The notes below the pieces were generated by a model that saw only the letters and a list, made by a program, of their open reading frames with translations, did no database searches and had not been told where the DNA came from. A stretch of 64,000 nt of DNA. Origin: an uncultured virus (IMG/VR IMGVR_UViG_3300011693_000001) (taxonomy: Duplodnaviria; Heunggongvirae; Uroviricota; Caudoviricetes). The stretch covers positions 62,001 through 126,000 of IMG/VR virus record IMGVR_UViG_3300011693_000001; one strand, given 5' to 3'. The translations under genes and the position numbers were made by a program. Below are positions 7,014 through 57,907 of this stretch, one piece after another (position 1 is the stretch's first letter; each line of letters opens with the position of its first letter).

Positions 7014-7033
7014 AAGTCTGATTGGATAAACCT

Positions 7034-8143
7034 ATGATTGCCCTTCATCAAACTGAAGGGTTCTCTTTCACTGTGGACGGCGGCAGCTTGCTGTCCGTCC
7101 TTTCGAAAGTGAACTCGATTGCCGGTGCCACTAAGTCTACAGATGCTGAACGCACCTTTTTGATTTTCGCCTGCGACAAAAAGCTGTACGCGCTTTCCTA
7201 TACCCCGGACACTTTCTGCTACATTCGTGTTGAAGCGAAAGTAAAAGGCGAAGGTTATTTCCAGTTTGATTACGAAACCTTAGCTCGTACGCTAAAGGGG
7301 CGTAAAGAACTAGAAGTAACAGTCGGCAGTCAGATTCAAGTTAAAGCCGGTCGTTACGTGATGAAACTGAATACCAGTGAAGTCCCTGCCAACTTCTTGA
7401 CCGCTATCGAAATTTACCTCAAATCCGGTAAAGCCGATAAGATGAAGAATAGCGATATGCAGAAAATCCGCAGCGCTATTAAGCAGGTTGATATTCAAGA
7501 CATTTACGCCGGCGGTAAAAACTGCTGTTACCTGATGATTCGTGAAGGGAAACTCTTAGCTACGTCGTACGATAGTTTCCACATGGTAATGGTCAAGGAA
7601 AAGGTAGCCTACCAGAATACCCAAGTGGCTTTCCATTCCGCTACTTTCCGCCTGCTGGACAAGTTTATCGGAGACGCTGATGTTGCTCTGTATGTCGGCC
7701 GCAATCTTCGAGTAGAGTCTGAAGACTTTGTTGTGTGTCTTCCTCCTGTTCAAGTAGATGAAGCTCAGTTTGAAATCGTACCAAACTATCTGAAAGGTCT
7801 ATCTGATCCTGTAGCCTCCTTTGAGCTGAACAGCGCTGCGATTAAAGCCTTGCATAACATCAGTGGCATCATTCAAGGCGATGACAAGATGGACATTACC
7901 GTGTCAGATGGTAAGGTAGAGATTTCCATCAAAAGCCAAAAGGGTAGTATCAGTGATAGCTACAAGTGCAAGACTTCTGGTGAGTACAAATTCACTGTTG
8001 ATCCTCGTTTGTTCCTTGATCTGTATCGCAAGGTAACGCTGCCCGCTATTGTTAATCTGCACGGCTCTGCACGCGGCACCAGCAATATCTTCTCGATTAA
8101 ACAAGACAATATTCGAATGGCAGGTTCCTACTATGAAAGCTGA
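7034..8143 (+). CDS. DNA sliding clamp, beta-subunit-like
   Basis: ~370 aa with a three-domain alpha/beta periodicity; LLATSYDSFHM resembles beta-clamp VATDGHRL; FTVDPRLFLD resembles FNxxYLLD; replication context. Confidence 0.6.
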   Translation: MIALHQTEGFSFTVDGGSLLSVLSKVNSIAGATKSTDAERTFLIFACDKKLYALSYTPDTFCYIRVEAKVKGEGYFQFDYETLARTLKGRKELEVTVGSQIQVKAGRYVMKLNTSEVPANFLTAIEIYLKSGKADKMKNSDMQKIRSAIKQVDIQDIYAGGKNCCYLMIREGKLLATSYDSFHMVMVKEKVAYQNTQVAFHSATFRLLDKFIGDADVALYVGRNLRVESEDFVVCLPPVQVDEAQFEIVPNYLKGLSDPVASFELNSAAIKALHNISGIIQGDDKMDITVSDGKVEISIKSQKGSISDSYKCKTSGEYKFTVDPRLFLDLYRKVTLPAIVNLHGSARGTSNIFSIKQDNIRMAGSYYES

Positions 8144-11861: not shown

Positions 11862-12848
11862 TTTGCCTGAATCATAATGCGATTCCCAGACAAACACAAC
11901 GTTAAATCCTTTCCTTATTAAGCGCAGGTGCCTGCGTTGTGTTTCATCGTAAAGCTGTTTAGCTGTCTTTTCGCTGAATGGGGAGCATATCTCGTTGTTT
12001 GAGAATCGCATTAGGTTACCGTGCCAAATATCTCCGTGAAATTCGAAAACAGTGTTTGTTTCCTTGCAGTAGCCATCTGCGAAGATAAAACGTTTTCCCA
12101 AGCTGATTTTCAGTTCACCTCCATTTTCGGCATGCTGTATATCCCATCCTTTCTTTTCCATTATAGCATTCATCCACGCCACAGCTTTTCTCGAATACTT
12201 TTTATTTCCATCTAAGAGTGAACATTTGCCACACCCGTTCCTCGGTGTTTGCAGTAGGGTGTTAGCTACGGCCGTAAATTTATTACCACAAGCACACTTG
12301 AATTTATGTCGCCAACCATCACCGTAGTAGGTATCTCCCACTAGTTTAACTTTGCCACCTGTAGCTTCTTTTAAATCACGTTTAAATCTAGGAAGACTCT
12401 TTCTTTGCTTATCTGCCGCTTGCTTTCTTCCACAATTAGGGCATCCGACTTTTGAGTTTAGGATATTGATTGGTTTAGTTTTCCACTCGTTCCCGCAAGA
12501 GTTGCATAGGAATGTATGATCGGTTTTTCCGCCCTGATATTTTTTCGATATCAGTTTCACCGAATCTGCAAATCTATCTGATAATTCCTGTCTAAATTCT
12601 TTAGTGGTCTTCCTTAAACCTAGTTTAACCCCCATTTTAATTGAACTAAGCCTTTCCTTCTTACATTCAAAGCACCCTCCTGTGGCCGACCTTAGAGTGT
12701 CACTAGGTTTAGCTAAAAACTTATGTTTGTGTTTCTTACATACGAATTCCATCTTTTCAGTAAGCAGGATATGCTTTTTTCTGAACACTGGAGTTATATG
12801 AGGGAAGTTGTCCTTATAAAACCTTCGTATTGTATCGGCTTTGTTCAT
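11835..12848 (-). CDS. Free-standing homing endonuclease: Zn-ribbon repeats plus Vsr-like PD-(D/E)XK domain
   Basis: Three CxxC/H...GCxxC repeats; FADGY...VFEFHGDIWHG...GFNVVFVWE; GAGGA SD before ATG 12848; the only convincing minus-strand gene; AT-richer than its flanks. Confidence 0.88.
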   Translation of the reverse strand: MNKADTIRRFYKDNFPHITPVFRKKHILLTEKMEFVCKKHKHKFLAKPSDTLRSATGGCFECKKERLSSIKMGVKLGLRKTTKEFRQELSDRFADSVKLISKKYQGGKTDHTFLCNSCGNEWKTKPINILNSKVGCPNCGRKQAADKQRKSLPRFKRDLKEATGGKVKLVGDTYYGDGWRHKFKCACGNKFTAVANTLLQTPRNGCGKCSLLDGNKKYSRKAVAWMNAIMEKKGWDIQHAENGGELKISLGKRFIFADGYCKETNTVFEFHGDIWHGNLMRFSNNEICSPFSEKTAKQLYDETQRRHLRLIRKGFNVVFVWESHYDSGKLVSGILYA

Positions 12849-35470: not shown

Positions 35471-36935
35471 GCAGTTTCTTGCTCTGAGTCCATCCAAACG
35501 TAAAAAGTATCTTAAGCAGTTTCCTCAATCTAGCCATCGTTTTCTTGATGGTGAGGGCGGGTCTAGCGAGGCTCCTGAAGAGAAACTTAAAAAAGTTAAG
35601 AAGGGAGATAAGCCTAAGAAGGGTGATAAGCCTAAGAAAGAAAAGAAAAAGAAAGAAGCGGAGATTGAACAGGACGAAGAGAAAGAACCTGAAGTAAAGA
35701 AGCGTCCATTTAGTCGCTTTATGACCAAGGCTCAATTCGCCATTCTTTCTGACGAAGAGAAAGCCTCTTATCTTGACCAGTTCCCCGGTAGCTCTCATAA
35801 GGAGCGTCCACCTCGCATTAAGCCACGTCCAAGCCGTATGGAACATAATCTGGATTTCACTGATGAAGAGCTGGCTTCTATGCATGAGGAAATGCAACAA
35901 GAGCTGGCTAATATGAGCACGGAAAATCGAGCTAGCATTAACCGGGAAAGTATCGGCCACTTAAATGATGTATCCACAGATGATATGCGTGAAGTGAGCG
36001 AAGATGTTCGCCACCACAGCGAAGAAATCGCAGAAGACGTCGCTAAGCGATTTCAGCGTCACCCTAAACTTTTCGGAGCTGGTTTATCCGGTATACGTAA
36101 GTTGTGGGGAGGTGAGGATGAACCCTCTCGTGCAGAAAAGAAAGCAGCCGATAAAGTTCTCACGCAGGCCACCAAATACGTAATGTTAGGGGCCGGTGTT
36201 GTAGCTCTAGCCGCTGCTGCTTCTCCTGTAGCGATGGTAGTAGGTGCGCTTATCCTAGACGCTTATGCCTCTAAATTTCTTGAGACTAAAGAAAACAAGA
36301 AGGAAGAGCAACTAGATAAGCTCAAACAAGAAAACTCTTTGATGAAGCAGAAGGAAAAGGAACGCCAAGAGCAATTGCGTGCCAAGATTCGCGCGCAGAA
36401 GGAAGAAGAAAAACGACTAGCTGAGCAGAAAGAAGAAACAGAGGAACGTCTGGAAGAATCTGCGGAAAAGGATCAGGCTGAATCCGAAGAAGAGCTTGAA
36501 CCTAATGTTCAAGAAGATGGAGATAGCGGAGAGGCTGTCTCTGACGAAACAGATGACGATGAAGAACCTAAGAAGAAAAAGAAGAAAAAGAAGAAAAAGA
36601 AAGGAATGAAATCGGAATCGGCATATCATAAGAATGATCTAGGTACTGGTATTGAGTTCACGCACGAAGATGATTTTGATACTATCCATGAGGTAGTTAA
36701 AAACATCGGTCAGTTCTTCGAGGATAACGATGCCGATACTTTACGCGATCATGCACGTGTTGCCTACGGTAAGCTAGCCAGCCATCTTGTATCCGAATCT
36801 TCTGCTACCTATAACAGTATCGACGATCTTGCTCAAGCAGTCTCCGGTCAGGTAGAAGGTAATTTTGTAGTAACGGCATCTGCCCGTTACGAATATAACG
36901 AAACGACTGGACGTTACGGTCATGCAAAAGATTGA
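35439..36935 (+). CDS. Highly charged hypothetical protein with a central hydrophobic segment
   Basis: Poly-K and acidic tracts; two copies of an F..LS...K..YL..FP.S.H motif. Confidence 0.7.
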   Translation: MKAEAAGISRKQFLALSPSKRKKYLKQFPQSSHRFLDGEGGSSEAPEEKLKKVKKGDKPKKGDKPKKEKKKKEAEIEQDEEKEPEVKKRPFSRFMTKAQFAILSDEEKASYLDQFPGSSHKERPPRIKPRPSRMEHNLDFTDEELASMHEEMQQELANMSTENRASINRESIGHLNDVSTDDMREVSEDVRHHSEEIAEDVAKRFQRHPKLFGAGLSGIRKLWGGEDEPSRAEKKAADKVLTQATKYVMLGAGVVALAAAASPVAMVVGALILDAYASKFLETKENKKEEQLDKLKQENSLMKQKEKERQEQLRAKIRAQKEEEKRLAEQKEETEERLEESAEKDQAESEEELEPNVQEDGDSGEAVSDETDDDEEPKKKKKKKKKKKGMKSESAYHKNDLGTGIEFTHEDDFDTIHEVVKNIGQFFEDNDADTLRDHARVAYGKLASHLVSESSATYNSIDDLAQAVSGQVEGNFVVTASARYEYNETTGRYGHAKD

Positions 36936-37668
36936 TATCCAAATGGAAGCTACCTCTTTCTCAATTGGTAGCGTTCCGACAGCTCTAAACAAAGCTAGCA
37001 AAACAGGTGCTTTGCATCTAGGCGCTAAAGTTGCCGGTGGCGAAGCTCGTAACCTAGAGGTGCATAACCTGTTAGCGGGTGCCTCAGAAGTATACCTAAT
37101 CAGCCCTGATGTTAGAGACTACATCATCATCCCTACTGTTAGTATGATTTCCGATATCCCTAATACAAACGGGGATAGTCTAAGTAAGCGGGAATTGCTG
37201 CGCTTTAACCCTAAACGGGGTTGCTTGACATATGAAACTTGGAAAGGTATGCCTACATTTGTTGAGCACGACAATAAGGATCATACCAAAGCCAAAGGGA
37301 TTATCTTAGATAGTTATCTAACTACTCTTCGTGGATTCCAAGGTGATTTGGTCAAAAGCGTCAAACTGCTAGCTTTTGACCGTACGAAAGACCCAGCTCT
37401 ATGCGAGCGCCTTCTTCGTAGGGAAGTGAACACATTTAGTCTTGGTTTTCTTTTCTCCGCATATGAGTGTAGTATCTGCGGTCACGTGTCCACAGGTCAA
37501 ACTTTCTGCGGTCATACTCGTCCTAAGCAGCGTACTTATAGGATGAACGATGGTCGCTTAGCTTACCGTCGTTGTATGTATGCAAACGGCTTTGAAGAGT
37601 CGGTTGTAAACGATCCCGCATACGTTTCTAACCTTAGTGACATTCTTCTCGACCCACGAAAGCTGTAG
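36922..37668 (+). CDS. Putative prohead (capsid maturation) protease
   Basis: PNTNGD, FVEHDN, KGIILD, FSLG, CSICG, S.V.DPA pattern typical of this phage protease type. Confidence 0.65.
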   Translation: MQKIDIQMEATSFSIGSVPTALNKASKTGALHLGAKVAGGEARNLEVHNLLAGASEVYLISPDVRDYIIIPTVSMISDIPNTNGDSLSKRELLRFNPKRGCLTYETWKGMPTFVEHDNKDHTKAKGIILDSYLTTLRGFQGDLVKSVKLLAFDRTKDPALCERLLRREVNTFSLGFLFSAYECSICGHVSTGQTFCGHTRPKQRTYRMNDGRLAYRRCMYANGFEESVVNDPAYVSNLSDILLDPRKL

Positions 37669-37705
37669 GCTTGAAACTGTGTTTAGTAAACTGTAAATAA
37701 CCAGT

Positions 37706-37794
37706 ACCTGAGAGGAAAAGCGCCGGCCAGCGCGGGAAAAGCCTATCACTTTTCCCTTACTCTCAGGTTTCTTTTTATCTGATAGGGATAAATC
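37706..37794 (+). ncRNA. Candidate cis-regulatory RNA leader, copy 1 (three-way junction plus pseudoknot to the RBS)
   Basis: P1 37706-14/37760-68; P2 GCGC-CGGCCA-GCGC; P3 GGGAAAAG-CCTATCA-CTTTTCCC; the P3 loop is complementary to TGATAGG 37780-86, overlapping the SD. Confidence 0.7.
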
Positions 37795-38895
37795 ATGGGA
37801 AACAACAGTCGTAAAGCAAGCGAAACAAAATTCGCAAATTCACCTGCTAGGATGCAACGCCGTCTGGATGAAAAGTTCGGCGGACATATACGCATCCACA
37901 GCGGTTACACAGGTTTTCGGTTTCCTGCTGTTTTTCATTGCAGTAAACACAACGAAGTTTTTCAGGTTCCTCGCGCAGAAGCGATGATCCATGATCGCGT
38001 AGGTTGTCCTACGTGTGCGACTGAGAGTAAACGAAAGTTAATGCAACGTGCTGGTAACGCTTACACTACAGCTATTTACCGTCAGGCTGTTCGTGAAAAG
38101 TATGGTCGCAAGATTACCGTTGTTGGTGAATACGGTGGTTACGAGTACAGGCATAAAGGCGCAGTTAAAACACTTCACAAGTGCAGCAAGCATGGTGAAT
38201 TTGAAGCGTGGCCTTCTGCTGTGCTTCAAAGACCTACTGGTGGTTGTCCCGAGTGTGCGTTAGATACGCGCCGTGTGAGAGTCAACACACTGACTGGCCC
38301 TGAATTCCGTAGGCAATTAAAAGCCATAGCTCCGCGTGTTCGACATATCGGTGAGTATGGCGGTAAAACAGTTCGCACTGAGTTCCGTTGCCGTGACTGC
38401 GCTCACGGATGGAAAACGACCCCTGATTCTGTACTGGCTGGTCATGGTTGTCCTGCATGCGGACTTGAAGCAACGTTCGCCAAACGTCATCACGGTTCAC
38501 GATTGCGCCCCTACAAGCTAGGCCGTCGTGAAGTAATGGTACAAGGGTTTGAACCACAAGCTCTTGATTACCTACGTTCAGTTGGCTACCGGCCTGAACA
38601 GATTTTCGTAGGCTCTGATGTTCCCAAGGTACGTTACAACTATCGTGGAAAGAACAGAACCTACTACCCTGACATTTGGATTCCGCATGAGAATTTAATC
38701 GTCGAGGTGAAATCCCTCTATTTCTTCGGCGCTACTGATATCAATTTGTTCCGTAGTGTGAAAGCTAAAAGAAATGCTACCTTGCAACATCATAACTTCG
38801 CATTGCTGGTTATGTCAGACGACGGTAAGAAGATAAGCATACCACAAGGTTGGCACAACCTTCCTCATGCAAAATTAAAAGCTGCCATCCTGTAA
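37795..38895 (+). CDS. Free-standing homing endonuclease: Zn-ribbon repeats plus PD-(D/E)XK domain
   Basis: CSKH...GCPTC, CSKHG...GCPEC, CRDC...GCPAC; QGFEPQAL; YYPDIW...IVEVKS. Confidence 0.85.
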   Translation: MGNNSRKASETKFANSPARMQRRLDEKFGGHIRIHSGYTGFRFPAVFHCSKHNEVFQVPRAEAMIHDRVGCPTCATESKRKLMQRAGNAYTTAIYRQAVREKYGRKITVVGEYGGYEYRHKGAVKTLHKCSKHGEFEAWPSAVLQRPTGGCPECALDTRRVRVNTLTGPEFRRQLKAIAPRVRHIGEYGGKTVRTEFRCRDCAHGWKTTPDSVLAGHGCPACGLEATFAKRHHGSRLRPYKLGRREVMVQGFEPQALDYLRSVGYRPEQIFVGSDVPKVRYNYRGKNRTYYPDIWIPHENLIVEVKSLYFFGATDINLFRSVKAKRNATLQHHNFALLVMSDDGKKISIPQGWHNLPHAKLKAAIL

Positions 38896-39540: not shown

Positions 39541-39901
39541 TAACTACGCACCACAATTTCAACGCGCGTACCGCAATGATCTGTTTGATATCACTATCAC
39601 TCCTGCTGATGGTTCAAACAGTACACTTAGTTTCCACGCAGTAGGTTTTGAATCCATCCATAACCTACGCGGTGGCAAGCAGGTTAAGATCATTTTCGTT
39701 GAAAACGACACCAGTTATCCTGAACTGGAAATGATCCCAATGATCCGCGAATACAACGTCCGCGTTGATCAGCTCAATGAAGCTGCGCGTCCTGTGTTTA
39801 CCCGGCATGATAGCAAAGTCACGTGGGTAGAGAGTCGTTTTGAAATCTCCTACGATGCACGTGGTATTGCTCGCCGTGTTGTCACATTCGAGGTAGTGTG
39901 A
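39533..39901 (+). CDS. Hypothetical protein
   Basis: Operon packing. Confidence 0.6.
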   Translation: MTDNYAPQFQRAYRNDLFDITITPADGSNSTLSFHAVGFESIHNLRGGKQVKIIFVENDTSYPELEMIPMIREYNVRVDQLNEAARPVFTRHDSKVTWVESRFEISYDARGIARRVVTFEVV

Positions 39902-40416
39902 TGGAGATAGTCATTCCAATGCAAGCAACAGCTGCCGTTAAGCTTGAACAAGCTCCCTATACAGGAACCAAAGGTCTGTATGCTTCGTTACTTCCTCAGT
40001 ATACCGACTCCATTATTAGTCTAGCGGAAGAACTTGGCATTAAGCTGGATTCCAATAAGGTTCACGTAACAGTCTGCTATAGCAAAACGGCAATTCATCC
40101 AGAAACTCTACCAGTGGCCAGCACCTCTCAAGTTTACCGGGCACTGTGTAATCACGTAGATCATTGGAAAGGCCACAAAGGTCAAACCTGTATCGTAATG
40201 AAGCTTACTTCGTACGATATCGTTGCCGCCAATGCTGATCTACAAGGGCGTGGAGCTGTACACACGTTCACGCCTTATTCTCCACATATCACACTTACCG
40301 ATGAAGGTACGGTTGATGCAGAAATGCAGGAACGTATCGATAAGATTAATAAGCGTCTGGCGTATGCTCCTATGTGGCTGAAGTTCGACCGTTATCATAT
40401 TGGTGATTTAACATGA
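39901..40416 (+). CDS. 2H phosphoesterase, Acb1 / T4 gp57B-like (candidate anti-CBASS nuclease)
   Basis: GLYA...HVTVCYSK and YSPHITL: two HxT motifs with gp57B-like spacing. Confidence 0.8.
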   Translation: MEIVIPMQATAAVKLEQAPYTGTKGLYASLLPQYTDSIISLAEELGIKLDSNKVHVTVCYSKTAIHPETLPVASTSQVYRALCNHVDHWKGHKGQTCIVMKLTSYDIVAANADLQGRGAVHTFTPYSPHITLTDEGTVDAEMQERIDKINKRLAYAPMWLKFDRYHIGDLT

Positions 40417-45121: not shown

Positions 45122-46216
45122 ATGAAACAACATCTGACTGGCGCGAAGATGCAACTGCGCAACGGCGATCCTATCGAAGCTCTGCGTTTCGGTAACAGCA
45201 ATCAACTGGCTCTGAGTTCTGCCACTGGCGAATTCAACGCTTACGATAAGAAAGACCTCGCTCACGCCATCACTCAGCTGATGGGCGCTTTTGCTTCCGG
45301 TCAAATCGTTCAACAGCAAGAAGCTACTGCTGCTGATATTCAAGAAGCCAAGCGTGAAGCTCTGGCCGCTGCTCTGGCTGATCCGAGCGGTGCTAAGTGG
45401 ATGGCTCTCGGTTCCGGTCTGGCTCGCCAAATCGACGAACAAGTTGAGCGTCAAGGTTTCCTGCGTAACATCGCTGTAGGTAACACTCTGCGTCAGGGCG
45501 AAATCGCTCGTATCCCGATGCCGACTCACGATGCTCTGGCCGTTGTTGCTACTTCTAGCGCCAACGTTGGTTTCCAGACTATTCGTAATCGTGTGTTCAC
45601 TCCGCAAGAGTTCGAAATCATCGCCAACGTTCGCGTTGAGTCGCTTGATCTGGAACAAGTAAGCGGCGATCTGCTGGAGTTTGCGTACAACCAAGGTCTT
45701 GAGCAAATCATGACCAAGGAAGACCAAATCTGGAAGAAAGCAGCCGACCAAACTGTTGGTGTTGTGAACCCGCTGGAACTGATCGCTGGTGAACTGACCA
45801 CTAAGAACCTCGGCAATCTGCGTCAAGCTGTTGCTAAGCATAACCTGCCGGCACAAACTGCAATCATCGCCAACGATTATTGGGCTGACATTATCGGTTC
45901 CAATGACTTCGCTACCATGCTGGACCCGATCACCAAGTATGATCTGGCTCTGAATGGTCAGCTGGGTACTCTGGTTGGTATGAACCTGATCACTGACGCT
46001 TTCCGTCAGCCGAACCAGAAAGTTCTGAATCCGGGCGAAATCTACATCGTTGCTTCTCCTGAGAACCATGCAGCTTACACCACTCGCGGTGGTATCCGTT
46101 CGCAGCCGACTTCCGGTGCGGATCAAGGTTCGACCAACCGTGGCTGGCTGATGAGCGAGCCGTTCTCCTTCATTCTGGCTAACGCCCGTTCGGTAGCGAA
46201 GGGCCAAAGAGTATAA
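45122..46216 (+). CDS. Major capsid protein (HK97-like)
   Basis: Size, extreme codon bias, IMTKEDQIW, GQLGTLVGMNLITD, GWLMSEPFSFILANARSV. Confidence 0.85.
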   Translation: MKQHLTGAKMQLRNGDPIEALRFGNSNQLALSSATGEFNAYDKKDLAHAITQLMGAFASGQIVQQQEATAADIQEAKREALAAALADPSGAKWMALGSGLARQIDEQVERQGFLRNIAVGNTLRQGEIARIPMPTHDALAVVATSSANVGFQTIRNRVFTPQEFEIIANVRVESLDLEQVSGDLLEFAYNQGLEQIMTKEDQIWKKAADQTVGVVNPLELIAGELTTKNLGNLRQAVAKHNLPAQTAIIANDYWADIIGSNDFATMLDPITKYDLALNGQLGTLVGMNLITDAFRQPNQKVLNPGEIYIVASPENHAAYTTRGGIRSQPTSGADQGSTNRGWLMSEPFSFILANARSVAKGQRV

Positions 46217-46254: not shown

Positions 46255-46353
46255 ACAAACATGTTTGGGGAAAAGCCGGCCAGCCTTCTCGGTTTCGCAC
46301 AATCGAGATACCTAAACCTGTTTGTTCTTTCCCGTGCGAGGGAGCATCCCAAA
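46255..46353 (+). ncRNA. Candidate cis-regulatory RNA leader, copy 2 (same fold as 37706)
   Basis: P1 46255-69/46311-25; GAAAA linker; GC-CGGCCA-GC; P3 TCTCGGTT-TCGCAC-AATCGAGA; the loop is complementary to GTGCGA 46334-39, abutting the GGGAG SD. Confidence 0.7.
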
Positions 46354-47175
46354 ATGTATTACGTCTACGTTCTTCTTGATCCTAGGCGACCCGGTAACTT
46401 TCGATTCGGTAAGTGGAAATTCGACTACGAACCTTTCTATGTTGGAAAGGGTACAAAAGATCGAGCGATATGCCACTGGCGTTCTTTCATAAACCATTTG
46501 GATAATCCTAGCTACGTACATCGTAAGCATAATCCATTGAAAGATAAGCGGTTTCAACATCTCTATAAAGCTGGTGTTGAGCCAATAGTAGTGATAAAGA
46601 AGCGGAATCTTACAGAAGAAGAATCTTGCTTAATTGAAACTGCGCTGATCGAAACTATAGGTCGTGTTAGATATGGTGGTCCTCTGTTGAATTTAGCCGC
46701 TGGCGGTAAAGGTGGCGGTAGTATGCTTGGTAGAAAACATTCTGCTGAATCTATTGAAAAGAACAGAGAAAGCAATAAGCAAACATCTGCAAGAATTGAT
46801 CCTCAGATCGTAAAGAAACGCACTGCTGCCAGATTAGCTACTATGGCCGCTAAGAGCGACGCAGAGAAGTTGATCATATCTAATCAGAATAAGAACGCCG
46901 CGCAAACATTTTGGGATGGTCCCTCGGAAAAGGTGGAAGCTCGCAATGCGAAAGTGAGAGCCTACGCGCGAAACCGATACGCAACAATGAGTGAATCGGA
47001 CTTGGCTAAACTGCGGGCTAAACAAGCCGTAGGTCATATCACGAAGCATCTACCTGATCGGACAAAGGAAAAGATTAAAGCCGAACTCAAAGCATATATT
47101 GATCGTAGCTCAATCACTAGCGTAGATAAGTTATGTAAGATGGTGCGGAATCGGTTTTATCGGATGGTTTCTTAA
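46354..47175 (+). CDS. GIY-YIG homing endonuclease (LEM-3-like) with NUMOD3-like motif
   Basis: YYVYVLLDPR...PFYVGKG..R, E..LI, LLNL; GRKHSAESIEK; start reassigned to ATG 46354 after the GGGAG SD. Confidence 0.88.
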   Translation: MYYVYVLLDPRRPGNFRFGKWKFDYEPFYVGKGTKDRAICHWRSFINHLDNPSYVHRKHNPLKDKRFQHLYKAGVEPIVVIKKRNLTEEESCLIETALIETIGRVRYGGPLLNLAAGGKGGGSMLGRKHSAESIEKNRESNKQTSARIDPQIVKKRTAARLATMAAKSDAEKLIISNQNKNAAQTFWDGPSEKVEARNAKVRAYARNRYATMSESDLAKLRAKQAVGHITKHLPDRTKEKIKAELKAYIDRSSITSVDKLCKMVRNRFYRMVS

Positions 47176-47266
47176 TTAGATCGCGTGAGGCTGATGAAGG
47201 AGTAGCGCCCGACTGATTCGCTTCACGCAGTCACTTGCAATCCGGATAAGTGTTAGCGAGGATATC

Positions 47267-54401: not shown

Positions 54402-57190
54402 TGGCTAAAAAAGACCCAACATTCGAAGAGCTTATTGCAATGGTCGATAAGCTTCCGAATGATATGCCGCAAGACTACAGTTACCGAAAGAAAGGTAAAC
54501 AGAAGAAAACAGAAGAGCGTGCTCCTGTTAAGGTAAACGCCCCTTCTGCCGTGGAGTCGAAGATTAGTGCCACAGTCAACAACCTGATGGAGACTAATAA
54601 TAAATTCCAGACTACACAGAACACAATCACTAATCAGCAGCTCGAAACCAATAAGGATCAGCTACAGGAAGATCGTAAGCAGACAGGTCTGTTGCAACAA
54701 CAGCAATCTATTTTGACTGACGTTAGCAACACGATGAGCAAGCTTTATCTGATGATGAAGCGCCAAGCCGAGAAGCTTACTCCTAAGATTCAAGAAAAAG
54801 CTCAGCGAAAAGAGCCTACTGTCAGCCCGTTGAATCAGAACCAAAACCAAAACAATGATGGTATGACTGGTTTGTTTGGCGAGCTGACAGATATGATCGG
54901 CGGTAAGAAACGCCGGCGGCCTATTAAACCTTCTCGCCAAAAGCGTGCAGATGCTCGCCGTCAGAATCGTGCAAGGGGTGGTGGTACTCCTAGTGGTAAG
55001 AATCCTTTTTCTGCAAGACTTGGCGGTCCTGCAAGCGCTAGTTTTTTCAGCAAAGTAAAAACAGCAGGCAAAGGCGCTTGGGAAGCAGTAAAGAAAACTA
55101 AAGGAAGTAAGTGGGCTAAGCTTGGCGCTGGTGCTGCCGCATCAGGTGCTGCTGTATGGGGAGGTTCCGAACTACTAAAAGGTGGTTTCGGTTCTGTAGC
55201 AGAGAAATATGAATCCGGCGGTCGTGGTGTCGGCACTATCTCTACGGGTAGAGGTGATCACGGCGGCGTTAGCTACGGTAAGCATCAGCTGTCTACCAAA
55301 TCAGGAACAATGAATACGTTCTTGAATTCGCCGGAAGCTCAACAGTTCGCTCCGTACTTTGAAGGTCTTACTCCCGGTTCCGCTGAGTTCAACTCGGTAT
55401 ATTCTAAAATCGCTAAGGATATGCCTGAGTTTGAAATTGCGCAAAAGCGTTTCATTGAGCGTACACACTATGAACCTGCGATGGAGAAGTTACAGAAGAA
55501 CGGTATCGATTTTTCTGAACGCAGTCGTGCTTTGAATGAACTTGTGTTTAGCACATCTGTTCAGTATGGTGCCAGTGGTGCTAATAGTAAGATCATGCGT
55601 GCCTTGGAGGGTCAAGATGTTTCCAAGCTTACCGATGCGCAACTGATCGAACTGATTCAAAATGACAAAGGCGCTAACGTAGGTACAGATTTCAAATCGT
55701 CATCTTATGAAGTTCAACAGAGTGTAGCCGCTCGTACTCAGAGAGAAAAAGCAGACCTGCTGGCTATGTTGCAAGCTGAAGAGGATGCAGCCAAAGGTAT
55801 TGATCGTGAATACCTAAATAGTGTTCGCGGTGATAACAAAGAAGGCGAAGTAGTAGCTGAGGTTCAACCGGCCACTATTGACGGTACTACCATAGTCTCT
55901 GCTAATGAAGCGCCTGTAGGTATTTTTCCCATCGGTGAAGTTAAACCCTCCACTGATCCTACTACAGCAGCCTTAGCTCTTGGTGGTGCTGCGGCAGTAA
56001 CAACAGGTGCCGTTGTTGCGAATAAAAGACGCGGTGCAATGCCTATCGATGGCATGAAAGGGAAAGAGGCGATTCCTGTTAAACCCTCCGTGACCGAAGG
56101 TATTAAAGGCTCAGCGGATGATGCTGTGAAAGCTGGAGCGAAAGGTGCCACGAAAGGAATGCTTAAAGGCGCTCCTGTTATCGGTACTGTGTTAACAGCA
56201 GCAGAAGCTGTTTCCATCGCAACCGACGATACCATGACTGGTAAAGAAAAAGCCCGTGCAGGCACCGGACTGGCCGGTGGTACTGCTGGCGCTATAGTCG
56301 GAGCTAAAGCCGGAGCCGTTGGTGGTGCTGCCCTCGGGACCATTATATTCCCCGGTGTTGGTACTGCTGTTGGTGGTGCAATTGGCGGTCTTGCTGGTTC
56401 TATTGGTGGTTATTTCGGCGGAGAATACATTGCTGAGGAAGGTTTCGATGTTATCGATGGAGCTGTTAGTCAGAAAGATAATGCTCCTGCTTTCGACCCA
56501 TCGGTTACGCCTCCTGTATCGTTGTTGGCTCCCGGTAAGCAAGCTGATGCTACAGTAGTTGCGGATAAACCAACCGCTACTCCTCTTGTTGCCGGAGAAA
56601 CCAAGTTACTTGTGGTTCCAGTACCTACCGCGCCAAAGGTAGAAACAAAATCTCCTGCTTCCAATATAGCTTCCGTTCCTAAAAAGACGGAGCCGGTTCT
56701 AGCAGAACAAGAACCTTTGGTTGTAAATCGTGGCAATACTCCGGTTGCGGTACAACCTGCTTCGGCAGCTAGTGTTCCAAAAGCACAAGTGGCTTCGACT
56801 CAGAAGATGATTCAGCAATCTCCGGTAGCCAGTAATGTTGCCCCGTTGATGCAATCGCCTGTTGAAGAGGTGTCACCGATATCTACACCTACTGTCAGCT
56901 TGGCGCCGAAGCATACACAGGCATCTTGGTCTTCGCTACCGCAAGCTACTCCGCAGAAAGTTGCAGAAGTATCTACGCAGCACGACACTCCAATGCAGCG
57001 GGAAGCTTTCACTTCTGTCACTCCTGTTGATGTACAGAATCCAACTAGTACCACTAGCGTTTCCGGTAATCCTCAGCGTATCCAAGGTTCAGGTGTTGCC
57101 GAGTCAAACTCGGTGCGGCCTGAATTGAAAGATGTTGCTCCGATGATAACTGATTTCGGAATCATCTTTATTAACACAGGGATTATTTAA
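54401..57190 (+). CDS. Tape-measure-like / tail lysin protein with a VgrG3-like peptidoglycan hydrolase domain
   Basis: KYESGGRG..TIS.G.GD.GGVSYG.HQL, STSVQYG; glycine-zipper segment; P/S/T-rich C-terminus. Confidence 0.75.
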   Translation: MAKKDPTFEELIAMVDKLPNDMPQDYSYRKKGKQKKTEERAPVKVNAPSAVESKISATVNNLMETNNKFQTTQNTITNQQLETNKDQLQEDRKQTGLLQQQQSILTDVSNTMSKLYLMMKRQAEKLTPKIQEKAQRKEPTVSPLNQNQNQNNDGMTGLFGELTDMIGGKKRRRPIKPSRQKRADARRQNRARGGGTPSGKNPFSARLGGPASASFFSKVKTAGKGAWEAVKKTKGSKWAKLGAGAAASGAAVWGGSELLKGGFGSVAEKYESGGRGVGTISTGRGDHGGVSYGKHQLSTKSGTMNTFLNSPEAQQFAPYFEGLTPGSAEFNSVYSKIAKDMPEFEIAQKRFIERTHYEPAMEKLQKNGIDFSERSRALNELVFSTSVQYGASGANSKIMRALEGQDVSKLTDAQLIELIQNDKGANVGTDFKSSSYEVQQSVAARTQREKADLLAMLQAEEDAAKGIDREYLNSVRGDNKEGEVVAEVQPATIDGTTIVSANEAPVGIFPIGEVKPSTDPTTAALALGGAAAVTTGAVVANKRRGAMPIDGMKGKEAIPVKPSVTEGIKGSADDAVKAGAKGATKGMLKGAPVIGTVLTAAEAVSIATDDTMTGKEKARAGTGLAGGTAGAIVGAKAGAVGGAALGTIIFPGVGTAVGGAIGGLAGSIGGYFGGEYIAEEGFDVIDGAVSQKDNAPAFDPSVTPPVSLLAPGKQADATVVADKPTATPLVAGETKLLVVPVPTAPKVETKSPASNIASVPKKTEPVLAEQEPLVVNRGNTPVAVQPASAASVPKAQVASTQKMIQQSPVASNVAPLMQSPVEEVSPISTPTVSLAPKHTQASWSSLPQATPQKVAEVSTQHDTPMQREAFTSVTPVDVQNPTSTTSVSGNPQRIQGSGVAESNSVRPELKDVAPMITDFGIIFINTGII

Positions 57191-57907
57191 ATGGCAACAA
57201 GTACCTTAAACGTTCAACGTCCTGTAGGGTCTAACCCTATAGGGCGTGTCGGCAAAGTTAAACCTCAGATTTCCGATCTTTATCAAGCTACACTGATTGT
57301 AAAGCGCGACGGGCGGAACGTCGTAAATTTAACGACTCCACTTCCCGAGAACTATCAGTTTAGTTTGGCCAGTAACTTTGACACGCCTTTTAACCAACCA
57401 TTATCCGATTTGTTTGGTCGCGCTAGTGGTGGTAAAATCAGCCAGCGTGCTTCGCAGGGTGCCACAGCTGTTACCGGTTTGACTACGCTACACAAGTATA
57501 TGTCAGCTGCTGTTTGGACGGGTGGTTCTGCTTTGCAGCTTACTATTCCATTTGTTCTTCAAGCATATGAAGACCCTAAAACAGAAGTCTTGATGCCTAT
57601 GAAGAAACTTATGCAAACTGTAGCTCCTTCTGAGACTCTAGGGATGCTTCGCGCACCCGGCCCTCATTTGTTAAATAACGGTGAAGAAGGCTTACTTGGT
57701 GGGGATGACATAACTGTAAAGATTGGAAGATTCTTTAAACTTAATCCCTGCATTATTACTAACGTCGATGAATCATTCGATACTCAATTCGATCACAATG
57801 GTGATCCTTTAGGTGTAGTGATTAACGTTAGTATCCTTAGTTACTTTACTACGACTAAGCAGGACTTGGATAACTGGTTCTTAGGTATTCCCCCGACTGC
57901 GGGTTAA
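57191..57907 (+). CDS. Baseplate / tube-initiator-like protein
   Basis: Position after the tape-measure-like gene; P...V.IG...CIITNV pattern. Confidence 0.55.
   Translation: MATSTLNVQRPVGSNPIGRVGKVKPQISDLYQATLIVKRDGRNVVNLTTPLPENYQFSLASNFDTPFNQPLSDLFGRASGGKISQRASQGATAVTGLTTLHKYMSAAVWTGGSALQLTIPFVLQAYEDPKTEVLMPMKKLMQTVAPSETLGMLRAPGPHLLNNGEEGLLGGDDITVKIGRFFKLNPCIITNVDESFDTQFDHNGDPLGVVINVSILSYFTTTKQDLDNWFLGIPPTAG

Follow-up and report, generated by a model that had tools for sequence, protein, structure and literature searches.

The 64,000-nucleotide (nt) stretch of DNA analyzed here (the window) comprises bases 62001-126000 of the 259,605-bp genome of an uncultured phage (IMG/VR record IMGVR_UViG_3300011693_000001), a genome with terminal repeats whose major head protein is 64% identical to its counterparts in the Pseudomonas phages PaBG and Lu11. 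Two homing endonuclease genes (HEGs) lie among its head genes, HEG1 behind the gene for the head maturation protease and HEG2 behind that for the major head protein, and each is preceded directly by a leader with the same distinctive RNA architecture. Three helices P1, P2 and P3 are arranged about a three-way junction, and the terminal loop of P3 (L3) is complementary to that of a small hairpin further downstream (P4, loop L4), which carries the Shine-Dalgarno (SD) sequence of the nuclease gene. We have high confidence that this leader is real; its function would be to hold down translation of the nuclease. The features of the two cassettes are collected in Table 1.

Table 1. Features of the two leader-endonuclease cassettes and their neighbours, in window coordinates. 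J12 and J31 are junction strands; where two ranges are given they are the two strands of a helix.
Feature	Position	Strand	Remarks
Head maturation protease gene	36922-37668	+	
Promoter-like motif AAACTGTAAATA	37688-37699	+	6 nt upstream of copy 1 P1; putative promoter
Copy 1 leader	37706-37797	+	between head maturation protease gene and HEG1
Copy 1 P1	37706-37714 / 37760-37768	+	sequence, RNAfold
Copy 1 J12 GAAAA	37715-37719	+	sequence
Copy 1 P2 GCGC[CGGCCA]GCGC	37720-37733; loop 37724-37729	+	sequence
Copy 1 P3 GGGAAAAG[CCTATCA]CTTTTCCC	37734-37756; loop L3 CCTATCA 37742-37748	+	sequence
Copy 1 J31 TTA	37757-37759	+	sequence; T-rich linker follows P1′
Copy 1 expression platform, P4 TTTATC[TGATAGG]GATAAA	linker 37769-37773; P4 hairpin 37774-37792	+	
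Copy 1 loop L4 TGATAGG	37780-37786	+	exact complement of L3
Copy 1 SD AGGGA	37784-37788	+	overlapped by TGATAGG; 8 nt before ATG
Copy 1 start codon	37795-37797	+	
HEG1, 366 aa: DUF723, zinc-ribbon repeats, DUF4379, C-terminal DUF7487 nuclease domain (PD-(D/E)XK-like)	37795-38895	+	Pfam, PHROGs endonuclease families
Major head protein gene	45122-46216	+	
Copy 2 leader	46255-46357	+	between major head protein gene and HEG2
Copy 2 P1, with bulges	46255-46269 / 46311-46325	+	
Copy 2 J12 GAAAA	46270-46274	+	
Copy 2 P2 GC[CGGCCA]GC	46275-46284	+	
Copy 2 P3	46287-46308; loop L3 TCGCAC 46295-46300	+	
Copy 2 J31 TA	46309-46310	+	
Copy 2 expression platform, P4 CCC[GTGCGA]GGG	linker 46326-46330; P4 46331-46342	+	
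Copy 2 L4 GTGCGA	46334-46339	+	complement of L3
Copy 2 SD GAGGGAG	46338-46344	+	
Copy 2 start codon	46354-46356	+	
HEG2, 273-aa GIY-YIG homing endonuclease	46354-47175	+	Pfam LEM-3_GIY-YIG, E 6.8e-11

All the helices and linkers that a first-pass annotation had read from the letters of copy 1 are present in the sequence, and the minimum-energy structure calculated by RNAfold is the same three-way junction (−35.3 kcal/mol, z −3.17; 3 of 200 shuffled sequences did as well). L3 is indeed the exact complement of the TGATAGG that overlaps the SD sequence, forming a duplex of 7 bp at −7.7 kcal/mol. The plan recurs at 46255 with unrelated stem sequences, just as had been described, and there the L3:L4 duplex is 6 bp in length, at −7.9 kcal/mol. 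In both copies the SD sequence is predicted to sit in P4 and L4 and to pair with L3. This contact had been called a pseudoknot with the ribosome-binding site (RBS). The pairing with that region stands, but the partner TGATAGG is itself the loop of the local hairpin P4, making the contact loop to loop; on the predicted structure it is better termed a kissing-loop interaction with a small SD hairpin than a simple pseudoknot between a loop and a single strand. The alternative fold that had been suggested for copy 1, using the second occurrence of GGAAAAG, fares poorly. Imposing it costs 8.2 kcal/mol (−26.4 vs −34.6 kcal/mol), and it has no counterpart elsewhere, the P3 sequences of the other members differing from that of copy 1 so that this fold is not conserved. 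The start codon of copy 2 (protein MYYVYVLLD...) was selected through alignment with relatives; an in-frame ATG at 46261 falls within P1.

No structural alignment of the two window copies was obtained with MAFFT. They share the core GAAAAGC(N0-4)CGGCCAGC, which is found twice in the window where 0.00 occurrences are expected (100 shuffles), and a motif scan of the 259,605-bp genome finds it at these two sites alone. Three copies of GAAAAGCCGGCCA at 254.3 kb of the genome were rejected as leaders, being coding repeats (AEKPAK). They belong to a Lys/Ala-rich protein with tandem AEKPAK-type repeats and a composition like that of histone H1 (genome 254100-254630, − strand, outside the window), which is a source of chance core matches. 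A hammerhead or other ribozyme was also rejected, since the junction strands have no CUGANGA-type core and Rfam gives no match.

How widespread is the leader? A covariance model, R1, was built from four metagenomic copies in other phages (alignment A2; loci L133, L134, L136 and L137), with the window copies excluded. Searched against the 64-kb window it ranks copies 1 and 2 first and second (E 4.9e-5 and 4e-4), and the rebuilt model that followed, R2, matches them with E 1.3e-13 and 9.9e-13. Applied to the whole genome R2 returns the two window copies only, in agreement with the core motif scan and with the R1 cmsearch of the window, with the caveat that a genome-level model search may miss copies: R1 gave one copy in the record behind L133, where cmsearch of the locus gave two. 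A covariance model and a search of phage genomes had been proposed as a check on the first reading of the element; with a model derived entirely from other phages, the matches precede HEGs and the base pairs covary.

The four founding copies lie among 17 loci coding for relatives of the major capsid protein, each with the leader and a GIY-YIG gene after the capsid gene; the remaining 13 loci have no endonuclease at that position. R2 finds the leader in 4 of the 76 GIY-YIG HEG loci of the collection viral_contigs. Where loci were chosen by an exact 16-mer core in viral_contigs, 29 of 59 are members (20 full-length, 8 with a short P1 and 1 cut by the end of the locus), as are 16 of 25 metagenome loci chosen by a 20-mer core. 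Seven loci with the 20-mer core in the bacterial genome_contigs gave no full member, and two of these (L420 and L425) are coding look-alikes. Cultured phages carry the leader as well. It lies between the capsid gene and a GIY-YIG gene in Erwinia phage pEa_SNUABM_22 (R1, E 3.1e-8), and is also found in Burkholderia phage BCSR5 (E 1.4e-8) and in Pseudomonas phage PaBG (E 8.3e-8), where it precedes gp297, annotated as an HNH endonuclease, and is not downstream of a co-oriented gene. The leaders thus appear to be a widespread and uncatalogued family that travels with HEG cassettes in phages, many of them uncultured.

Closer to the window, contigs from wastewater carry the leader together with relatives of HEG1 at 90-95% identity. 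Among the 40 substitutions listed, of 70, none falls between 37636 and 38006; two indels touch the leader region, one before the promoter-like motif and one in the linker, and a 1-nt deletion occurs at 37931, inside HEG1. Querying the phage collection with the DNA of the locus brought up no relatives, near or distant, and single-protein searches with HEG1 and HEG2 returned relatives too distant to be informative. A number of candidates were set aside. Exact-motif scans of viral_contigs gave, among the matches listed, mostly chance hits in GC-rich coding DNA, and the weak R1 and R2 matches at window 7031-7121, in L138, L139 and L129, in Lu11 and in BcepSaruman are plain hairpins with an SD sequence. 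A further site at window 57146-57193 (+ strand; R1, E 0.029) has a hairpin, linker and SD like the 3′ half of the leader, without the three-way junction.

The first-pass annotation could not match the element to a named RNA family, and comparison with Rfam 15 bears this out. There are no matches in the window at the gathering score and none at the leader at E <= 10, the best hit near it scoring 15.4 bits against a cut-off of 76; on 16 member loci there was no leader hit at E <= 1. Full-text literature searches likewise turned up nothing on HEG leaders with a three-way junction or a kissing loop.

The base pairing of the leader is maintained in dozens of phages, with extensive compensatory substitution, in keeping with the earlier view that it is a conserved RNA element. 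Alignment A5 contains 25 distinct copies and 543 pair cells, of which 94.7% are paired, compared with 55.6% in shuffled alignments; none of 500 shuffles reached the observed value. Cells changed on both sides number 214, against 60 in the shuffles, and when partners are slid out of register the paired fraction is 33-45%. Covariation is found for 21 of the 23 pairs, including all 13 of P1 and all seven of P3, and every stem position in these two helices is variable. The junction and the loop of P2 (L2) behave quite differently, many of their nucleotides being close to invariant. J12 has the sequence G-A-(A/C)-A-A in all 25 copies, with A at the third position in 20 and C in five. L2 is CGGCCA in 23 copies, the exceptions being L137 (UGGCCC) and a degenerate second copy in L133 (ACCGUA), and in J31 the U is present in 24 copies and the A in 22. 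The CGGCCA loop is also kept in copies found without use of the 16-mer, namely both window copies, L133, L134, L136, L275 and PaBG.

The contact between L3 and L4 covaries in the same manner. The L3 of each copy was compared with the 60 nt downstream of it, taking as the null the comparison of L3 with the downstream regions of other members. In 22 of 24 copies L3 has a perfect complement 6-10 nt long that starts 6-15 nt after P1′; a complement of 6 nt or more is reached in just 25 of 552 cross-pairings. The two exceptions are L137, where we find 5 nt by eye and the alignment is mis-registered, and the degenerate second copy in L133, which has no gene behind it. Seven further members all follow the rule, as do PaBG and BCSR5, each of these two with 7 nt. 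The complement of L3 terminates in the GG of the SD sequence. The distance from there to the start codon is 7-14 nt in 22 of 23 copies and 3 nt in L399. A short stem P4 flanks L4 in 22 of 23 copies, a count for which no null was run. The pairing between the P3 loop and the RBS of endonuclease genes, first noticed in copy 1, is therefore seen across the family, where L3 covaries with the SD-bearing loop.

That the leader stands upstream of endonuclease genes, as had been read at this locus, holds well beyond it. Among the proteins encoded directly downstream, 13 of 16 relatives tested, plus both window proteins, have Pfam matches to GIY-YIG, HNH, NUMOD3, I-HmuI-like, DUF723, DUF4379 or DUF7487 families, so that the leader precedes at least three unrelated families of nuclease: GIY-YIG, HNH and the PD-(D/E)XK-like DUF723/DUF7487. 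The PD-(D/E)XK label given to HEG1 at the outset has moderate support. In an alignment of 14 sequences (A6), all share P68, D69, E80 and K82 in the C-terminal domain, and we take D69 and E80-x-K82 to be the catalytic D...(D/E)-x-K motif. A structure model of HEG1 (mean predicted local distance difference test score, pLDDT, 91.5) was compared using VIA-align. TnsA scores Z 7.8 (109 aligned, root-mean-square deviation 3.6), Vsr scores Z 6.6 and I-Bth0305I scores Z 5.8, none reaching the Z 8 that marks a clear match. Foldseek with the same model returned nothing at E <= 0.001, with PA-N, T7 endonuclease I and RecE as weak top rows; a sequence search of the PDB gave no match, and NCBIfam nothing useful. 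With fold matches of only Z 5.8-7.8, it is likely but not proven that the domain is a PD-(D/E)XK nuclease.

Compared with PaBG, Lu11, HRDY3 and L130, the cassettes are inserted segments. In PaBG the next gene comes straight after that for the protease, with no HEG at the site of copy 1. At the second site, most capsid-relative loci that have no HEG, and also PaBG, Lu11 and HRDY3, have a hairpin with a GGAGCGCCCC apex after the capsid gene. The native hairpin of the window lies at ~47183-47228, downstream of HEG2, which identifies HEG2 with its leader as the inserted segment. A long post-capsid hairpin with the apex GGAG(N0-2)GCGCCC occurs throughout this clade of phages (window 47183-47228; L127-L132, L138-L144). 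In Lu11, HRDY3 and the L138-L142 group the capsid stop codon is closely followed by ATCTCC, which could base-pair with GGAGAT, the SD sequence of the next gene; this suggests translational coupling or masking.

Some members depart from the simple arrangement of leader and gene. The degenerate second copy in L133 (L133:5361-5467), whose P2 loop reads ACCGUA and whose P3 loop is 17 nt long, follows a GIY-YIG gene and may be the relic of a lost cassette; L384, with an open reading frame of 26 codons, and L368, with a truncated GIY-YIG gene, resemble similar stages of decay. Rfam recognizes a group I intron core at L352:650-939 (RF00028, 83.8 bits); a leader and GIY-YIG gene lie ~150 nt further downstream, so the leader occurs with intron-associated endonucleases too.

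The motif that abuts P1 of copy 1 is of a kind that is enriched between genes in this genome, CTGTAAA by 5.8-fold and TGTAAAG by 6.3-fold. By our own reading of the list of sites, the longer form AACTGTAAA(G/T) occurs ~21 times in the genome, in many cases 11-75 nt before the start of a gene, and is a candidate phage promoter. A TGTAAAG-like motif is found at the equivalent place in L133, L134, L136 and pEa_SNUABM_22. As the motif adjoins the leader in copy 1 and recurs in its nearest relatives, a dedicated transcript probably begins with the leader itself. The form AACTGTAAA(G/T)A is frequently followed by (N3-4)GTAT, and TGTAAA[GT] starts at positions 133, 6997, 14453, 30209, 37692, 57715 and 62170 of the window.

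Homing endonucleases have to be expressed enough to spread, and not enough to harm the phage that carries them. To our knowledge, little is understood of how free-standing HEGs are controlled beyond the T4 model. Kissing complexes in nature include that of ColE1 RNA I with RNA II and the L2-L3 contact of the purine riboswitch. These resemble the leader in having fully complementary hairpin loops of 6-7 nt and, in the riboswitch, a three-way junction that organizes the contact. In the leader the contact is in cis, from an arm of the junction to an external SD hairpin, and the likeness is one of mechanism, with no homology implied.

Masking of the RBS in HEGs is itself well established; what is new here is a three-way-junction kissing-loop leader with an invariant CGGCCA. 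For the T-even HEGs I-TevI, I-TevII, I-TevIII and segB, and for mobE of Aeh1, the relevant parts of PMC2988022 describe RNA structures that limit translation by sequestering the RBS, which is freed when transcription starts at a late promoter inside the structure. In those systems as here, the leader RNA of a mobile nuclease gene occludes the SD sequence. The T-even structures, as that source presents them, are simple hairpins specific to each gene, and their logic needs the internal late promoter. In the leader a conserved three-way junction would instead bring an anti-SD loop to a second hairpin, the arrangement is common to unrelated nucleases in distant phages, and the promoter-like motif is upstream of the entire fold. 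The marine 'fractured genes' of Dassa et al. 2009 (PMC2677866) offer a second parallel. The sections of that paper bearing on the subject report a conserved hairpin before the start codons of GIY-YIG and Vsr-like HEGs in 15 of 16 untranslated regions, for which control of translation was proposed, and one locus that retains the structure after loss of the HEG. Like the present leaders these are conserved RNA structures immediately 5′ of GIY-YIG and Vsr-like (PD-(D/E)XK) HEGs, but the paper describes them as single hairpins accompanied by a T4 late-promoter box. Their motif 1, given in supplement file 1, has an AT-rich sequence that does not resemble the core found here, and that file contains neither CGGCCAG nor GGCCGGCC.

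The reading that we prefer, with a probability of about 0.7, is that the leader is a portable mRNA element, borne by the cassette, that masks the RBS and throttles translation of the nuclease. The RNA would fold as the P1/P2/P3 three-way junction, with its near-invariant GA[A/C]AA, UA and P2 hexaloop CGGCCA, providing a scaffold that presents the 6-7-nt L3 to the L4 of P4. The first G residues of the SD sequence are placed in L4 and the remainder in the 3′ strand of P4, and the kissing complex and P4 would jointly bury the RBS, so that the nuclease should be translated weakly whatever the abundance of the transcript. Such a throttle would matter here in view of the sites of the cassettes, which follow the genes for the head protease and the major capsid protein; a throttle carried within the cassette could let an endonuclease settle in an operon with high expression and do no harm to the phage. 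That the leader functions as RNA and on the mRNA strand, that translation is repressed by it and that P2 has a role in this are inferences from the sequences. Several points weigh against this account. A5 was fitted to the structure of the model, which inflates the counts of pairing, and 14 of its 25 copies owe their discovery to the exact 16-mer core, so the invariance of J12 and L2 is in part ascertainment. P2 is nearly invariant, two of its three pairs never varying, and its support therefore comes mainly from energy and from a single G-C to A-U swap in PaBG. Copy 2 taken alone is no more stable than shuffled sequences (z −1.44). An invariant hexaloop and junction are not obviously needed by a plain throttle, the copies at L133:5361-5467, L384 and L368 have no intact nuclease behind them, and two other HEG-like genes in this genome have no leader.

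The conserved junction and loop lead naturally to the thought that the leader is a regulated switch, a reading that we regard as doubtful but worth keeping in view. The invariant junction and CGGCCA loop might be a binding site for a small ligand, for a protein of the host or the phage, or for another RNA, so that the L3-L4 contact is stabilized or broken and the nuclease is timed; the GGCC core being self-complementary, two leaders might also kiss. That J12, L2 and J31 are conserved while the whole of P1 and P3 varies speaks for such a switch, and no other partner for GGCC was seen in the flanks examined. Yet no Rfam riboswitch matches, a single binding protein cannot be all three of the unrelated nuclease families, and the loop deviates in L137 and in the degenerate L133 copy. 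Moreover the conservation, partly ascertainment as noted, might equally reflect tertiary packing of the junction. Should the leader after all be a true sensor, which we think improbable, a factor acting in trans (a metabolite, a protein or a second leader via GGCC) would open or lock the contact; unrelated HEGs in many phages would then be timed by one and the same portable riboregulator, which would amount to a new class of riboswitch-like RNA devoted to selfish genes. Timing in the manner of T4 is unlikely. On this scheme the structure would form on read-through transcripts alone, while a promoter inside or just after it would give late, translated transcripts without L3. It is the established scheme for the T-even genes and mobE named above (PMC2988022, in the parts cited), and both window cassettes follow strongly expressed structural genes. 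However, the promoter-like motif lies upstream of the entire structure of copy 1, so that its transcript would carry the complete leader, and the position is likewise upstream in the four relatives that have it. No such motif was seen between P3 and the SD sequence, though the promoters of this clade are unmapped.

An element acting on the transcript, either a terminator or insulator for the upstream capsid genes or a 5′ stabilizer or processing site to which the RBS pairing is secondary, seems quite improbable to us. Copy 1 has T at seven of the eight positions after P1′ (TTCTTTTT, 37769-37776), the copies follow highly expressed genes, and a helix at the 5′ terminus would protect transcripts if these start at P1. 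Against this, six or more T in those 8 nt are found in just 2 of 24 copies (mean 3.7), the linker being G-poor and not U-rich; the PaBG copy has no co-oriented gene upstream, a scan for terminators called neither site on the + strand, and a terminator leaves the covarying L3/L4 pair unexplained. To action from the opposite strand, as an antisense RNA, or as a signal in the DNA, we give very little credence. Watson-Crick covariation is neutral as to strand, and GGCCGGCC is an 8-bp palindrome in the core of many copies. The palindrome is nevertheless absent from window copies 1 and 2, L137 and PaBG. On the gene strand 23 cells are G.U and 8 are A.C, an excess that favours the mRNA strand, though the alignment was fitted to that strand and the test is weakened accordingly; and the partner of the loop always ends in the GG of the SD sequence near a start codon, which is sensible on mRNA only.

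If the leader is indeed a cassette-borne throttle, then a single portable control module would serve GIY-YIG, HNH and PD-(D/E)XK-like nucleases, moving with or between selfish genes. It would also represent a new family of structured RNA with an unusually clear tertiary contact, in that the kissing loop covaries in nearly every copy. Its occurrence in the cultured phages PaBG (of P. aeruginosa PAO1), pEa_SNUABM_22 (Erwinia amylovora) and BCSR5 (Burkholderia) makes it directly testable, and in practical terms the covariance model can flag nuclease cassettes and true start codons in the annotation of phage genomes.

Two further genes of this genome encode zinc-ribbon endonuclease-like relatives of HEG1 and are without the three-way junction, one at window ~12216-12848 (− strand) and the other at genome 24726-25729 (+ strand), outside the window. 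The first of these has a plain hairpin (AAGGTAGATGA...TCATCTACCTT) that ends right before its SD sequence. Elsewhere in the window, the product of 39898-40416 (+ strand) matches Pfam Acb1, an anti-CBASS 2H phosphoesterase (E 3.5e-17), and also a PHROGs 'RNA ligase' (LigT-like) family; its counterpart in PaBG carries the annotation RNA ligase LigT.

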